DNA of 8,647 nucleotides from PVC group bacterium (GTDB lineage Bacteria > GCA-001730085 > JADFSZ01): assembly GCA_022560555.1 (NCBI GenBank), contig JADFSZ010000069.1, forward strand, positions 1 to 8,647, written 5' to 3'. This document shows positions 4,238 through 7,982 of this stretch, one piece after another; the first letter of the stretch is position 1, and the number at the start of each line of letters is the position of its first letter. Position numbers and translations under genes: made by a program. Under the pieces are notes generated by a model that saw nothing but the letters and a program-made list of their open reading frames with translations, was not told the origin of the DNA and made no database searches.

Positions 4238-5782
4238 ATGAAAAAACGGTCGTTGGTATATACGTGTATTATTATGTCGCTGTTGTCCTGGGGGCCGGTG
4301 GGCTTAGCGTCTCTCGGAGCCGAGGACGCCCCGGATTTGAAAAAATATGCCGGTGAGGCCTTTGGAAAAAAAATCACGAACAGGGAATTTGCTTATCACT
4401 ATAGGACCGCGGCGATTTTCACCAGATCCGGCAAGGAAGATCGAACGGAGGAAGAAACCAGGGCGGAAGCGTGGCAGAATTATGTTTACCTGAAAGAGGC
4501 GAAAGAGATGGGATTTACCATTAGCCCCGAAGATCTGAAGAGCGAGCTTAAACGTCTTATGGCTCTGAAAAATGTTGAGTACGGTACGGAGAATTACCAT
4601 CAGATTGTACGTAATCAATTTCAGGAGAGCCCGGAAGATTTTGAAAGAAGGATCGAAGATCTTATGATTGTGAACCGGTTTTTAGCGGAAAAATCCAACC
4701 CCGATATTACGGTGACCGAGGCTGAAATGCTTCAAAAATTTCTCAATCAATACAACTCTTTTGAAAGTGAATACCTCCTCTTTGAAGACCGCGCCGAAGC
4801 GGAGGATTTCCATGCGAGGGTAAAAAAAAATCCCCGTCTATGGAAAGACACATGGGATGAAAAAAAGCCGCTCGGCCAAAAGGGGGGTTCCTGGATCAAT
4901 ATCATGAGTTTGGAGGCTTTGATTGATTTATGGAAGATCCCAAAAGACGATGCCTATCGGATCCTGAGTCATGAACCGGGCGAATTTATTGTTGCGAAAC
5001 TCATTTATGGGGATGTGGTGTTTCGCCTATTAAATACGCGCAAAGCTGATATGGAAAAGTATACGGAAAAAAAGCAGGATTACTACAAAGACATGCTTTT
5101 GGGTATAAAGAAACGTAAGCAGGTTCAGGGATACTTCGATGACCTTCTAGAGCGGGCCCAACACCGTGATTATTGGACAGAAAATGAAGAACAAAAAAAG
5201 CGTGAGCTATTGAAAACAAAAGATTTAATTGCCCTCGAAACGAACCATGGTATAATACACGTCAAATTATTTGTCGATGCGGCTCCTTTAGCCTGTGAAA
5301 ATTTTATCGGCCTCGTTGAAAAAGGGTATTTTGACGGGATCATCTTTCATCGTGTGATCAAAGGTTTTATGATCCAGAGCGGTGATCCAACGGGAACAGG
5401 CCGGGGGGGAGATTCTATTTGGGATATTCCTTTTATAAATGAGACGAGTGAGGACCTTTTGTTTGATCGGCCGGGCCTTTTAGCCATGGCGAATTCAGGA
5501 GCCAACACTAATAAGAGTCAGTTTTTTATCACGACAAGGAAAGCCCTTCATCTGAACGGCAGGCACACAATATTTGGTGAAGTCATCGCCGGGTATTCTG
5601 TGGTAAAAGAGATAGAGGGAGTTGAGACCGGTAAAAGTGACAAGCCGAAGGACGAGCAAGTCATTGTCAAAGCCTACATAGGCGATCTGTCAGAAGAGGC
5701 AGAGTTAAGGCTTGCCGGTGAAGAGGAATTTGAAAAAGCTGAAGAAGAGGAGGCGCTGACACATGATGAAAAAAATCAGTAA
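4238..5782 (+). CDS. Periplasmic chaperone/PPIase fusion: SurA-N/PpiD-like domain + cyclophilin-type peptidyl-prolyl cis-trans isomerase (514 aa)
   Basis: The ORF-track start at 4229 is a TTG. The ATG at 4238 lies 1 nt after the upstream TAA (4234-4236) and gives the signal peptide MKKRSLVYTCIIMSLLSWGPVGLASLGA. The N-terminal ~330 aa is helical and resembles SurA_N/PpiD (ITNREFAYHY...EAWQNYVYLKEAKEMGFTISPEDLKSELKRL...FERRIEDLMIVNRFLAEK). The C-terminal ~160 aa is an unmistakable cyclophilin (FHRVIKGFMIQSGDPTGTGRGGDSIW...LLAMANSGANTNKSQFFITT...LNGRHTIFGEV). The catalytic R, F, Q, N, Q-F and H positions are present. The protein ends in an acidic tail. Confidence 0.9.
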   Translation: MKKRSLVYTCIIMSLLSWGPVGLASLGAEDAPDLKKYAGEAFGKKITNREFAYHYRTAAIFTRSGKEDRTEEETRAEAWQNYVYLKEAKEMGFTISPEDLKSELKRLMALKNVEYGTENYHQIVRNQFQESPEDFERRIEDLMIVNRFLAEKSNPDITVTEAEMLQKFLNQYNSFESEYLLFEDRAEAEDFHARVKKNPRLWKDTWDEKKPLGQKGGSWINIMSLEALIDLWKIPKDDAYRILSHEPGEFIVAKLIYGDVVFRLLNTRKADMEKYTEKKQDYYKDMLLGIKKRKQVQGYFDDLLERAQHRDYWTENEEQKKRELLKTKDLIALETNHGIIHVKLFVDAAPLACENFIGLVEKGYFDGIIFHRVIKGFMIQSGDPTGTGRGGDSIWDIPFINETSEDLLFDRPGLLAMANSGANTNKSQFFITTRKALHLNGRHTIFGEVIAGYSVVKEIEGVETGKSDKPKDEQVIVKAYIGDLSEEAELRLAGEEEFEKAEEEEALTHDEKNQ

Positions 5783-6485
5783 ATCGACCGGTTTCGTATT
5801 AACAATTCTATTTGGCTTGAACATGGCCGTTTCCGGCCTATATGCGGCCGAAAAAGAAGATGAGGCCGCAAAGGCTAAGAAAGCCGCGCAGGAAAAGAAG
5901 AGGGAAATGATCCAAGAGGCCAAAGATAGCTTTAATAATACGGATTGGGCCATTAAGCTGATTCCGACAGGAGAGGATAGAGAAAGCAGAAAGGAAGAAG
6001 AAGATATTCTGCATTTTTCCGGATACAAATTCAGGTCCGACAAATTGATTAATGAGACTTTTAAACCCACCAATTACACGGTCCGCCTTAAGGGTAAGGA
6101 TGGGTCCCGCGTCATATGGGAGACCATGCAAACGAGTGAAAGCAAAGGAGTCGCGTTTTGGCGGGGAGAGTTCCAAAAAGATGGTAGTGTGCAGGGTGTT
6201 CTCTCATGGCATGTGAGTGATGATGACAGGAGGGATTATTCTTTTTCAGGTGAAAAGACAGTCATTGTTGAAGAAGTGCCAACGGAAGAGCCTGCTGAGG
6301 GGTCTGAGTCCGGCGAAGAGCTTATCACTGAGTCTGTCGTTGAGGCTGGTACGGATGTTCCAGAGGTTGTAACAACTGAAGCCGAGGCCGAAGCAGCCAT
6401 AGAAGTAGAAGAAACCCCGGCCCCGAAAGAAGTTGAAAAGAAGGAGCCTGCTTCTAGAGAAAGGCGAGGTCGTAGAAAATATTGA
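5763..6485 (+). CDS. Secreted protein of unknown function with acidic low-complexity C-terminal region (240 aa)
   Basis: A GAGGAGG Shine-Dalgarno at 5747-5753 lies 9 nt before the ATG at 5763. The start overlaps the upstream gene by 20 nt. Signal peptide: MMKKISKSTGFVLTILFGLNMAVSGLYA|AE. A compact central domain follows (WAIKLIP...ILHFSGYKFRSDKL...VIWETMQTSESKGVAFWRGEFQKDGSVQGVLSWH). The C-terminus is an E/T/V/P/A-rich acidic tail ending in the basic RERRGRRKY. Confidence 0.7.
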   Translation: MMKKISKSTGFVLTILFGLNMAVSGLYAAEKEDEAAKAKKAAQEKKREMIQEAKDSFNNTDWAIKLIPTGEDRESRKEEEDILHFSGYKFRSDKLINETFKPTNYTVRLKGKDGSRVIWETMQTSESKGVAFWRGEFQKDGSVQGVLSWHVSDDDRRDYSFSGEKTVIVEEVPTEEPAEGSESGEELITESVVEAGTDVPEVVTTEAEAEAAIEVEETPAPKEVEKKEPASRERRGRRKY

Positions 6486-6545
6486 TATGATGTATGATCA
6501 TGCTTGTTGTTAATTTTTAAGTCATTTACCATTAATAGTTTATTC

Positions 6546-6574
6546 TTGACATATTCACGCAACTTGCCTATATT
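6546..6574 (+). promoter_or_regulatory. Near-consensus sigma70-type promoter (-35 TTGACA, 17-nt spacer, -10 TATATT)
   Basis: TTGACA lies at 6546-6551. An exact 17-nt spacer follows (6552-6568), then TATATT at 6569-6574, which matches TATAAT at 5 of 6 positions. The upstream ~50 nt is AT-rich and UP-element-like. The predicted start is near 6581-6582, at the foot of a GC-rich 5' hairpin (AGGCCT 6584-6589 pairs with AGGCCT 6603-6608). Confidence 0.6.
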
Positions 6575-6611
6575 ATACGCGATAGGCCTGGGTCTTCTGA
6601 TAAGGCCTTAG

Positions 6612-6638
6612 TTTCCGATGAGTCAAGCTCATCGGAAA
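6612..6638 (+). other. Array hairpin HP1: perfect 11-bp stem, 5-nt loop
   Basis: TTTCCGATGAG (6612-6622), loop TCAAG, CTCATCGGAAA (6628-6638). It is followed by TA and then ATGCAC. Confidence 0.8.
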
Positions 6639-6699
6639 TAATGCACGAGCTACTTGGGCAGCCGGTTCGGGAGAAACTGCGCTTCTCAAACACCTAATG

Positions 6700-6724
6700 T
6701 TTAGAAGAGCCGAGCTCTTCTAAA
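6700..6724 (+). other. Array hairpin HP2: perfect 11-bp stem, 3-nt loop, stem sequence unrelated to HP1/HP4
   Basis: TTTAGAAGAGC (6700-6710), loop CGA, GCTCTTCTAAA (6714-6724). It is followed by ATT and then ATGCAC. Confidence 0.8.
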
Positions 6725-6809
6725 ATTATGCACGAGCTTATCAGGTTCCAGGCTCATGTTGAAATCATGCACAAGCTTATTGGGCAACAATTTCGGGAGG
6801 ACGCCTGGA

Positions 6810-6837
6810 TTTCCGATAAGCTGGCGCTTCTCGAAAA
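6810..6837 (+). other. Array hairpin HP3: imperfect stem with 10 of 12 positions paired, 4-nt loop
   Basis: TTTCCGATAAGC (6810-6821), loop TGGC, GCTTCTCGAAAA (6826-6837). The mismatches are T6817/C6830 and C6813/A6834. It is followed by CC and then ATGCAC. Confidence 0.6.
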
Positions 6838-6881
6838 CCATGCACGAGCTTGGTGGGTTCCAGGCTCGGGGGGACGCCTTA

Positions 6882-6908
6882 TTCCCGATGAGACCAGCTC
6901 ATCGAAAA
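6882..6908 (+). other. Array hairpin HP4: 7-bp perfect core (6886-6904) with U/A extension
   Basis: CGATGAG (6886-6892), loop ACCAG, CTCATCG (6898-6904). TT at 6882-6883 can pair with AA at 6907-6908 across a 2x2 internal loop. It is followed by TA and then ATGCAC. Confidence 0.7.
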
Positions 6909-7028
6909 TAATGCACAAGCTTATTGGGCAACAAGTTCGGGAGGAACGCTGCTTGACCATTTTCATTTATAACTTATAATTCTTTTACCGTCATAGCCAT
7001 CAACTCATGGACATTTCTACCTTATCTC

Positions 7029-7982
7029 ATGAACTTTTCTGTGATTATTCCTGTTCGAAATGGGGCCGATACCTTGGCCTTGTGCTTGGAGGCCCTCAAC
7101 AAGATCCGGGGCGATAAAACAGAAATCATCGTTGTAGATGATTTAAGCCAAGATGCTTCTGTGGAGATCGCCGAGGGTTTGGGCGTCCGCGTGATTTCTC
7201 TTACGACAAGACACGGATCCGCCGCCGCCAAAAATATCGGGGCCAAAGAGGCCACAGGGGAGATTCTGTTGTTTGTTGACGCGGATGTAGTGGTTCCTAA
7301 AAACACATTTGATCTTATTTTGCAAACCTTTCGTCAAAACCCAGCCATAGCGGCTATTACGGCAAATGTTTCGTTAGAAATCCCTTTCAAGGGGTTTTTC
7401 ACTCAATACAAAAATTGTTATATGCATTTTGTGCTTTCACGGGCCAGCTCTCAGGCGGATTTCTTTTATGGCTCGCTCATCGCGATACGAAGGAAGGAAT
7501 TTATGCTTTTTGACGAAAAAACGCGCGTGGAGGACACAGAGCTCGGTCAGCGTTTGCATAAACAGGGGAAATCCATTTATCTGGACCATCAATTACAAAT
7601 CACTCATTTAAAACAATACTCCCTTATCAGCGCCTTGAAAAATGATTTTTTTGTTCCCTTTTGGTGGAGCCGCACATATCTTTTACATAGCGGAATAAAA
7701 GATGTTGTCCGGAAGAAAACTTTTGCTCATGCGCGTCTCACACAACTCTTCAGTATTTTAGCCGTGTTTTTGACGTGTTTGTTTTTCGTGTTGGCTATGG
7801 AACAACTCGGGAGTTTATTTTTATTGGCTTTTGTCATTTGTAACGCGAGATTTTTCGGATTTCTTATGAGACAAAGAGGCTTTGTGTTTTTTTTAAAAGC
7901 TCTTGTCTGGACCTTTATCGATCAAATTGTGATGGGATTCGGGGTTATGGCAGGGATGATATATTTTAAGGTTAGAAAATAG
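7029..7982 (+). CDS. Family-2 (GT-A fold) glycosyltransferase with C-terminal transmembrane helices (317 aa)
   Basis: The N-terminus carries the GT2 signature (FSVIIPVRNGADTLALCLEAL...EIIVVDDLSQDASVEIA...GSAAAKNIGAKEATGEILLFVDADVVV, with DAD as the DXD motif). The C-terminus is hydrophobic (LTQLFSILAVFLTCLFFVLAM...LFLLAFVICNARFFGFL...LVWTFIDQIVMGFGVMAGMIYF). Size and topology resemble polyprenyl-phosphate glycosyltransferases (GtrB/ArnC/DPM1-like), but the substrate cannot be inferred. Confidence 0.88.
   Translation: MNFSVIIPVRNGADTLALCLEALNKIRGDKTEIIVVDDLSQDASVEIAEGLGVRVISLTTRHGSAAAKNIGAKEATGEILLFVDADVVVPKNTFDLILQTFRQNPAIAAITANVSLEIPFKGFFTQYKNCYMHFVLSRASSQADFFYGSLIAIRRKEFMLFDEKTRVEDTELGQRLHKQGKSIYLDHQLQITHLKQYSLISALKNDFFVPFWWSRTYLLHSGIKDVVRKKTFAHARLTQLFSILAVFLTCLFFVLAMEQLGSLFLLAFVICNARFFGFLMRQRGFVFFLKALVWTFIDQIVMGFGVMAGMIYFKVRK

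Follow-up and report, generated by a model that had tools for sequence, protein, structure and literature searches.

CsrB and RsmZ (for CsrA) and CrcZ (for Hfq/Crc) are multi-site decoy small RNAs. Repetitive extragenic palindromic (REP) sequences are defined by a GT[AG]G (or CGTC) tetranucleotide conserved at the foot of a hairpin (PMC6006769, PMC3733652), and TnpA-REP reads them as a free stem sequence combined with a fixed flanking motif (PMC3479197, PMC6006769). Here we describe a repeat array in an 8,647-nucleotide (nt) contig from an uncultured Omnitrophota bacterium (JADFSZ010000069.1, referred to as the window), whose protein homologues carry the name Candidatus Omnitrophota. The array sits in a 543-nt intergenic region (6486-7028) between the genes for a protein that we call protein 6 and a GT2 glycosyltransferase, and is built from five degenerate tandem units and four main hairpins (HP1 to HP4) in which base-pairing is kept as the sequence changes. 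The array fits no described family and resembles decoy small RNAs, REP clusters and hairpin-punctuated precursors.

Like CsrB, RsmZ and CrcZ, the array has the apparent layout of a few-hundred-nucleotide noncoding RNA with its own promoter, in which degenerate repeats alternate hairpins with a short conserved motif taken to be single-stranded, and it seems to share with them A-rich linkers and a repeat number tolerant of change. Unlike CsrB and RsmZ, it gives no Rfam Csr/Rsm match at E values up to 10, and its hairpin loops (UCAAG, CGA, UGGC and ACCAG) lack GGA, which is found only in a GGGRGGA sequence after a second stem. Its motif is AUGCACRAGCU rather than the ANGGA or AANAANAA of the Csr and Crc decoys, and we know of no partner protein for such a decoy RNA in this lineage.

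The likeness to REP clusters and bacterial interspersed mosaic elements (BIMEs) lies in extragenic palindromes of 25-28 nt (HP1 to HP4) with stems of 7-11 base pairs (bp), clustered downstream of an operon, with stem pairing kept while sequence varies, conserved linkers and, in a close relative, a neighbouring gene resembling a REP-associated tyrosine transposase (RAYT). Unlike REPtrons, in which REPs lie on either side of an active tnpA-REP gene, the array has no tag, its copies are direct, no dispersed copies were seen, the RAYT-like neighbour is without the catalytic tyrosine, and long non-palindromic parts are conserved. The array also recalls the precursors of clustered regularly interspaced short palindromic repeat (CRISPR) RNAs and other polycistronic precursors, being promoter-driven with a hairpin every 70-90 nt beside a conserved handle-like sequence. 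Unlike in CRISPR arrays, the hairpin-plus-head repeats are only 74-80% alike, the 'spacers' are mutually homologous (A and B types), and the head-to-head spacings are 87, 39, 73 and 71 nt; a search of the window turned up no cas domains. Type III toxin-antitoxin (ToxI-like) loci likewise join a promoter to tandem RNA repeats, with a terminator ahead of the gene that comes next, as in the relative at locus L194. Here, however, the repeats are irregular and degenerate, and what lies downstream, GT2 in the window and a riboswitch-controlled RAYT-like gene in L194, is in neither case a ToxN-type nuclease; no ToxN/AbiQ-type toxin follows.

Hairpins retain pairing while their sequence changes

Each of the five units is headed by AAAYNATGCACRAGCT, with starts at 6641, 6728, 6767, 6840 and 6911, and the head consensus ATGCACRAGCT is found in 5/5 window units. 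A full module comprises a hairpin of about 11 bp with U-A closing pairs, an A-rich linker, the head AUGCACRAGCU and the purine-rich GGGRGGA. A hairpin and then an A-rich linker come before heads 1, 2, 4 and 5; head 3 instead comes after the truncated unit 2. Units 1, 3 and 5 are of A-type (containing GGGCAACAAGTTCGGGAGGA) and units 2 and 4 of B-type (containing GGGTTCCAGGCTCGGGGGGA); the two types are homologous column by column, and units 3 and 5 share 95% identity over 40 nt. The array and its promoters comprise the following features.

6546-6574, + strand: P1, a sigma-70-like promoter reading into the array (TTGACA-17-TATATT, 11/12 consensus matches)
6584-6608, + strand: leader hairpin (AGGCCT ... 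AGGCCT), 6 bp and an inner 3 bp, present in minimum-free-energy and ensemble folds
6612-6638, + strand: HP1, TTTCCGATGAG-TCAAG-CTCATCGGAAA, a perfect 11-bp helix with a 5-nt loop, -16.2 kcal/mol, identical in L194
6641-6699, + strand: unit 1, an A-type variant with head ATGCACGAGCT, a weak second stem, GGGAGAA and a small GAGAA/TTCTC hairpin
6700-6724, + strand: HP2, TTTAGAAGAGC-CGA-GCTCTTCTAAA, a perfect 11-bp helix with a 3-nt loop, identical in L123 and L194
6728-6766, + strand: unit 2, a short B-type unit of 39 nt without a GGGRGGA tail or a following hairpin; the least conserved unit
6767-6809, + strand: unit 3, A-type, with head ATGCACAAGCT, a GGGCAA loop and GGGAGGA
6810-6837, + strand: HP3, 10/12 positions paired, mismatches C x A and U x C, loop TGGC, -6.6 kcal/mol
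6840-6881, + strand: unit 4, B-type, including an 8-bp helix (6846-6853/6860-6867)
6882-6908, + strand: HP4, a 7-bp core (CGATGAG/CTCATCG) and two closing U-A pairs across two C x A mismatches, -9.6 kcal/mol
6911-6952, + strand: unit 5, A-type, its tail overlapping the -35 element of P2
6953-6980, + strand: P2, a sigma-70-like promoter in front of GT2 (TTGACC-16-TATAAT, 11/12 consensus matches)

An earlier sequence-only reading of the window had proposed that the hairpins are selected for structure rather than sequence. The coordinates it gave for the hairpins all check out, HP1 and HP2 are perfect 11-bp helices, and the stem that it saw shared between HP1 and HP4 is borne out, because the HP4 core is identical to HP1 sequence. 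The equal distance to the next head that it described holds only to within 1 nt (2 nt for HP1 and 3 nt for HP2), the HP2 helix being displaced by 1 nt relative to HP1. HP3 is not simply the decayed version of HP1 it was taken for, as it carries one G-C to A-U double change besides its two mismatches.

Perfect 11-bp hairpins are rare by chance in this composition, occurring in 4 of 5000 dinucleotide-preserving shuffles of the intergenic region (6486-7028), which itself has two. When HP1 and HP2 are compared in register, their six arm differences amount to three pairs changed on both sides (C-G to U-A, C-G to A-U and U-A to A-U), with none left unpaired. When six substitutions are placed at random in the HP1 arms, all 10 shared pairs survive in 0.12% of cases if G-U is allowed and in 0.01% if only Watson-Crick pairs count. 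MAFFT aligns the hairpin-plus-head segments with the arms unmoved. Across six distinct copies (four from the window, one extra copy from the relative at L123 and one HP3-like copy from the relative at L002), 84.7% of cells are paired, compared with 36-46% when the partners are slid. Both-side changes occur at 4/12 pairs, the covariation score lies above all 500 shuffles, and RNAalifold independently recovers the same main helix with 3 compensated pairs.

The arrays of relatives, which are 2-4% diverged, show no stem-disrupting substitutions in HP1 to HP4. Because the orthologues are this similar, the covariation evidence is paralogue-to-paralogue and not phylogenetic. The observation that the hairpins keep base-pairing through sequence change is real, and the proposed selection on structure agrees with the kept pairing and compensated swaps of the main hairpin. 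The pairing data may also be compatible with hairpins formed in single-stranded DNA.

The proposal does not carry over to the second helix, which spans head positions 7-28. The 8-bp helix of unit 4 and its 6-bp counterpart in unit 2 (6734-6739/6750-6755) both exist as described, but the helix is not B-type-specific, because A-type units can pair at these columns as well. Of its cells in eight distinct units, 66.7% are paired, a value reached by 116/500 shuffles, and only one cell is compensated. In L123, T6754C turns an A-U pair into an uncompensated A x C, and the extra unit of that array has one C-G pair broken; in the terminal unit of L194 the helix is destroyed though the sequence GGGTTCCAGGC is kept. 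The sequence-only reading had itself named uncompensated stem breaks in relatives' arrays as the outcome that would speak against selection on structure, and for this helix such breaks are what the relatives contain.

Promoter, terminator and variation among relatives

P1 has a predicted start at about 6581-6583. It is conserved in four relatives, the same site is present in L194, and the region is kept in L002 and L193; in L002 it is 1.7% diverged, compared with 4-7% for the neighbouring genes. In L194 the + strand has a self-contained stretch of about 365 nt, made up of P1, three units and a terminator hairpin with U8 behind it (-18.4 kcal/mol). P1 and this terminator bracket the L194 array, which makes a + strand noncoding RNA the best reading.

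Array-bearing relatives are confined to a species-level clade. Contigs encoding a 91-98% identical protein 6 or a 96% identical GT2 end inside or beside the array (L001, L002, L123, L191, L193 and L194), with contigs of at least five assemblies breaking at it, a pattern compatible with multiple copies. Unit number varies between strains. L123 has the window units and an in-line 72-nt extra unit, made of HP2b (a 10-bp variant of HP2) and a short B-type unit. L194 has three units, in the order P1, leader, HP1, unit 1, HP2, unit 2 and a degenerate unit with head AGGCACGAGAT, 3' of which about 150 nt of unrelated sequence ends in the hairpin and U8. L002 has fewer units; there the leader seems to run directly into an HP3-like hairpin that carries a C-G to U-A double change. 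Recombination in L002 apparently took place at the leader hairpin, whose 5' part TTCTGATAAG (6595-6604) recurs in the 5' arm of HP3.

Heads are altered in 2/11 head-bearing units of relatives, reading ATGCACGGGCT in the extra L123 unit and AGGCACGAGAT in the terminal unit of L194 and L002. In L191 the first 36 nt of unit 5 are identical to the window, and the tail has 5 changes in 14 nt. Between the window and L123, 4/5 substitutions in the array fall in unit 2 and none in HP1 to HP4. L123 and L194 come from one sample and share units 1 and 2 with small differences, diverging afterwards; since, in addition, the window has GT2 where L194 has a riboswitch and RAYT-like cassette, the window junction of protein 6, array and GT2 could be either a real deletion or an assembly collapse between two arrays.

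Searches outside this clade were negative. The region 6300-7200 gave only noise in Rfam at E values up to 10; nhmmer with the array and covariance model R1, run on 66 syntenic Omnitrophota loci, matched only close relatives; and blastn of the array against plasmids and phages gave no match. R1 found no copies outside arrays in the window, L194, the close-relative contigs or 482 kb of Omnitrophota loci, a search set that includes about 16 kb of the array's own lineage. Scans with TRF and for hairpins and repeats in the equivalent intergenic regions of distant relatives revealed no analogous array. The head pattern gave only single chance matches in viral contigs. A two-head pattern occurs at at least 120 metagenome loci and, among the matches listed, all are unrelated satellites or coding repeats.

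A riboswitch and RAYT-like cassette in relatives

Downstream of the protein 6 homologue, many Omnitrophota loci have a long intergenic region with a class I cyclic di-GMP (c-di-GMP-I) riboswitch (48-64 bits), and then a gene for a protein of about 430 amino acids. This protein has an N-terminal Y1_Tnp match, then a membrane segment and a coiled coil, and a C-terminal domain that resembles protein 6. The best NCBIfam match of this RAYT-like protein is REP-associated tyrosine transposase, at 57-72 bits and below the 80-bit cutoff. Compared with E. coli TnpA-REP (4ER8), the HUH motif (HLH) is present and the catalytic Tyr is His or Phe: the region of the Y---NP catalytic tyrosine motif of TnpA-REP (PMC6006769) reads RHIHLNP in the RAYT-like proteins and DYIYINP in E. 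coli. From its sequence, the RAYT-like protein looks like a domesticated, non-catalytic HUH protein. In L194 the cassette directly follows the array, with the gene split in two; the array is on one side only, about 500 nt upstream of the RAYT-like gene. The window has GT2 at this position and no Y1 gene.

Riboswitch matches (RF01051/RF03167) lie at 4786-4870 in L163, 3771-3860 in L140, 4776-4865 in L135, 4846-4942 in L133, 4691-4795 in L134, 4951-5071 in L128, 4837-4939 in L126 and 1851-1931 in L194. RAYT-like genes are at 4990-6258 in L135, 5077-6369 in L126, 5337-6716 in L128, 4998-6218 in L163 and 2066-2500 with 2561-3385 in L194. In the window, neither riboswitch model matches within 6300-7200 at E values up to 10. 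An origin of the array from a c-di-GMP aptamer was rejected on the lack of covariance-model signal, the shared 7-8-mers being expected by chance.

GTAG...CTAC 'double-foot' palindromes of REP type occur in L133 (2255-2284 and 4702-4731) and L132 (2474-2499). The L133 copies, ACGTAGCGCAGGC-TTAA-GCCTGCGCTACGT and ACGTAGCGGAGCC-TTAA-GGCTCCGCTACGT, differ by two pair swaps. One GTAG palindrome copy falls between the protein 6 homologue and the riboswitch.

One conceivable link, which we regard as quite improbable, is that the hairpin-plus-head modules are ligands of this riboswitch-controlled, membrane-anchored, tyrosine-less RAYT-like family of relatives and serve as a multivalent tether or decoy. 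The domesticated HUH domain would then read the hairpin shape together with the fixed AUGCAC/GTGCAT flank, as single-stranded DNA or RNA.

A proposed modular noncoding RNA and its alternatives

We tentatively favour the reading that the array (about 6582-6952) is a lineage-specific, fast-rearranging + strand noncoding RNA gene, or a long 5' leader, read from P1; for this RNA we infer transcription, the working strand and a role as decoy or precursor. The nearly invariant single-stranded head would be the working element, either a protein binding site or a seed for an RNA partner. The hairpins may be structural punctuation that keeps heads exposed, blocks exonucleases or marks cleavage in the A/U-rich linker, a role in which pairing would be kept and sequence left free. 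The role of the RNA could be that of a multivalent decoy, or of a polycistronic precursor to units of about 70-90 nt, and either would tolerate gain and loss of units. Other identities were dropped during the analysis: a sigma-54 promoter (TGGCAC-N5-TTGC), because the head has no GG; tandem sigma-70 promoters, because a scan found none; iterons or centromere repeats, because of the irregular spacing and differing palindromes; integron attC sites, because the units are too short and no integrase is present; and intrinsic terminators as the identity of the array, because none were found on either strand.

Several results weigh against the noncoding RNA reading. No terminator-like site was found on either strand of the window from the array to GT2, and we identified no partner protein or target of the array. 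On the minus strand HP3 has 11/12 positions paired, including one G-U (-10.2 kcal/mol compared with -6.6 on the + strand), and the two C x A mismatches of HP4 become G-U (-11.1 compared with -9.6), so that both are full-length helices with G-U pairs. Pairing across the six copies is accordingly 88.9% on the minus strand compared with 84.7% on the + strand, a gain of net three cells that may represent two or three mutational events and is suggestive only. Folded as a whole, the array is as stable on one strand as on the other (z -6.6 and -6.8), and the heads are not consistently unpaired in the global fold. Array divergence from relatives (0-4.7%) is close to that of the flanking genes (2-6%), giving no clear sign of extra constraint, and no array homologue was found beyond the species-level clade in Rfam, plasmids, phages or the 66 Omnitrophota loci, which makes phylogenetic covariation impossible. 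The promoter and terminator favour the + strand as the working one; the hairpin pairs alone do not settle the strand.

The same hairpins could instead form a REP- or BIME-like cluster of single-stranded DNA structures, possibly of the minus strand, read by a Y1 HUH (RAYT-like) protein, which we consider rather unlikely but one of three serious rivals. What keeps this reading alive is the RAYT-like gene just downstream of the intergenic region in the ancestral-type arrangement of L194 and many Omnitrophota loci; the free stem with a fixed flank also fits TnpA-REP recognition (PMC3479197, PMC6006769), and the full minus-strand helices of HP3 and HP4 (with G-T/G-U pairs), the contig breaks at the array and the GTAG-tagged palindromes of other Omnitrophota loci are in line with it. 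However, the hairpin feet carry no GT[AG]G or CGTC tag, a scan for GT[AG]G with a stem finding sites in L132 and L133 only and none in the window; the 5' flanks read CCTTAG, CCTAATG, CCTGGA and GCCTTA on the + strand and GTGCAT(W)ATT on the minus strand. Every copy points the same way, conservation extends over more than 40 nt of the units outside the palindromes, and the window, L194 and the 482 kb of Omnitrophota loci have no copies outside the array. The RAYT-like proteins, moreover, have His or Phe at the catalytic Tyr and a large C-terminal extension like that of subclasses reported without REPs (PMC6006769), and the window itself is without a RAYT-like gene. Just as unlikely, and as serious a rival, is functionless repeat DNA, amplified and reshuffled by unequal crossing-over, with palindromes perfected by template switching and not by selection. 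Template switching during replication makes and maintains perfect palindromes without selection and, by turning quasi-palindromes perfect, mimics compensatory change (PMC8794818). Close strains differ by the gain, loss and recombination of units, the array diverges about as much as its flanks, HP3, HP4 and unit 2 look decayed on the + strand, and there is no homologue elsewhere. Set against this are the conserved near-consensus promoter into the array and the terminator that closes it in L194, the nearly invariant head (in L191 the A-type unit is unchanged over its first 36 nt and varies in the tail next to them) and the occurrence of two independent perfect 11-bp stems at the same slot. Paralogues and orthologues diverged by 2-4% cannot separate selection on RNA, recognition of single-stranded DNA and template-switch mutation.

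Two further explanations were considered. A cis-regulatory 5' leader of GT2, in which P1 transcripts run through the array and alternative pairings gate read-through or translation, is the third serious rival but distinctly unlikely. The candidate partners are the upstream UCGGGRG for the hairpin 5' arm and the start region of GT2 for the A-type AAGUUCGGGAG. There is no terminator between array and GT2; AAGTTCGGGAG in unit 5 (6933-6943) is complementary to CTCATGAACTT (7026-7036), spanning the GT2 start codon, with 9/11 Watson-Crick pairs and one G-U; and 6876-6888 is complementary to 6937-6949. Complementarities this long are expected by chance, though, their positions are invariant in relatives, P2, a strong separate promoter, intervenes before GT2, and in L194 a terminator and other genes come after the array. 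Tandem small open reading frames (ORFs), with each ATGCAC head starting a short peptide (MHEL.../MHKL...), are highly improbable. Every head opens with ATG after an A-rich stretch, and a gene caller predicted a 61-codon ORF in L123. Against this, unit periods such as 73 and 71 nt are not divisible by 3, head 4 falls out of frame, units 3 and 5 differ by a 1-nt indel, the ORFs of 18, 83, 70, 23 and 22 codons overlap, and there is no Shine-Dalgarno sequence. Exhaustive protein searches with the 83-codon ORF returned only the L123 copy and a match to P0071, a Listeria-Bacteroides-repeat surface protein (3209 amino acids, residues about 2086-2913; E=1.7e-10). We rejected the latter as spurious because its score only sums eight weak 12/33 matches to 87-amino-acid repeats.

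Gene context

The genes of the window lie on the + strand in the order GspC-like, secretin, tetratricopeptide repeat (TPR) protein, unknown protein, cyclophilin-type isomerase, protein 6, the 543-nt intergenic region and GT2. The genes that flank the array are as follows.

5763-6485, + strand: protein 6, 240 amino acids, no Pfam family
7029-7982, + strand: GT2 glycosyltransferase (PF00535, 5.5e-28)

The protein 6 family has neither a Pfam nor an NCBIfam model and is apparently largely confined to the Omnitrophota, where the secretin/TPR/cyclophilin cluster always precedes it. Certain W, F, R and G residues are invariant in this family (WETMQTS...GVAFWRGE...LSWH), and the tail is acidic and of low complexity. 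The start of GT2 is flanked by a direct repeat, CTCATGGACATTTCT / CTCATGAACTTTTCT (7004-7018 and 7026-7040, 22 nt apart), the second copy of which includes the annotated ATG (7029); the GT2 gene model of one relative (P0065, 324 amino acids) starts further upstream. An 8-bp hairpin, TTTTTTAT-GCGGA-ATAAAAAA (2374-2394), located in the 14-nt gap 3' of the secretin gene, overlaps the TPR start codon (2380).

Implications

A more general by-product of this work is a conserved Omnitrophota c-di-GMP-I riboswitch ahead of a tyrosine-less RAYT-like membrane protein. Should the modules be ligands of that protein, the array would link second-messenger signalling to a hairpin-binding former transposase. 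If the array is instead a functional RNA, as we tentatively favour, it would be among the very few candidate regulatory RNAs of the Omnitrophota, for which we know of no cultured model and of almost no described noncoding RNAs, and it would show, cleanly and on a small scale, how a helix persists when whole pairs are swapped between paralogous modules.

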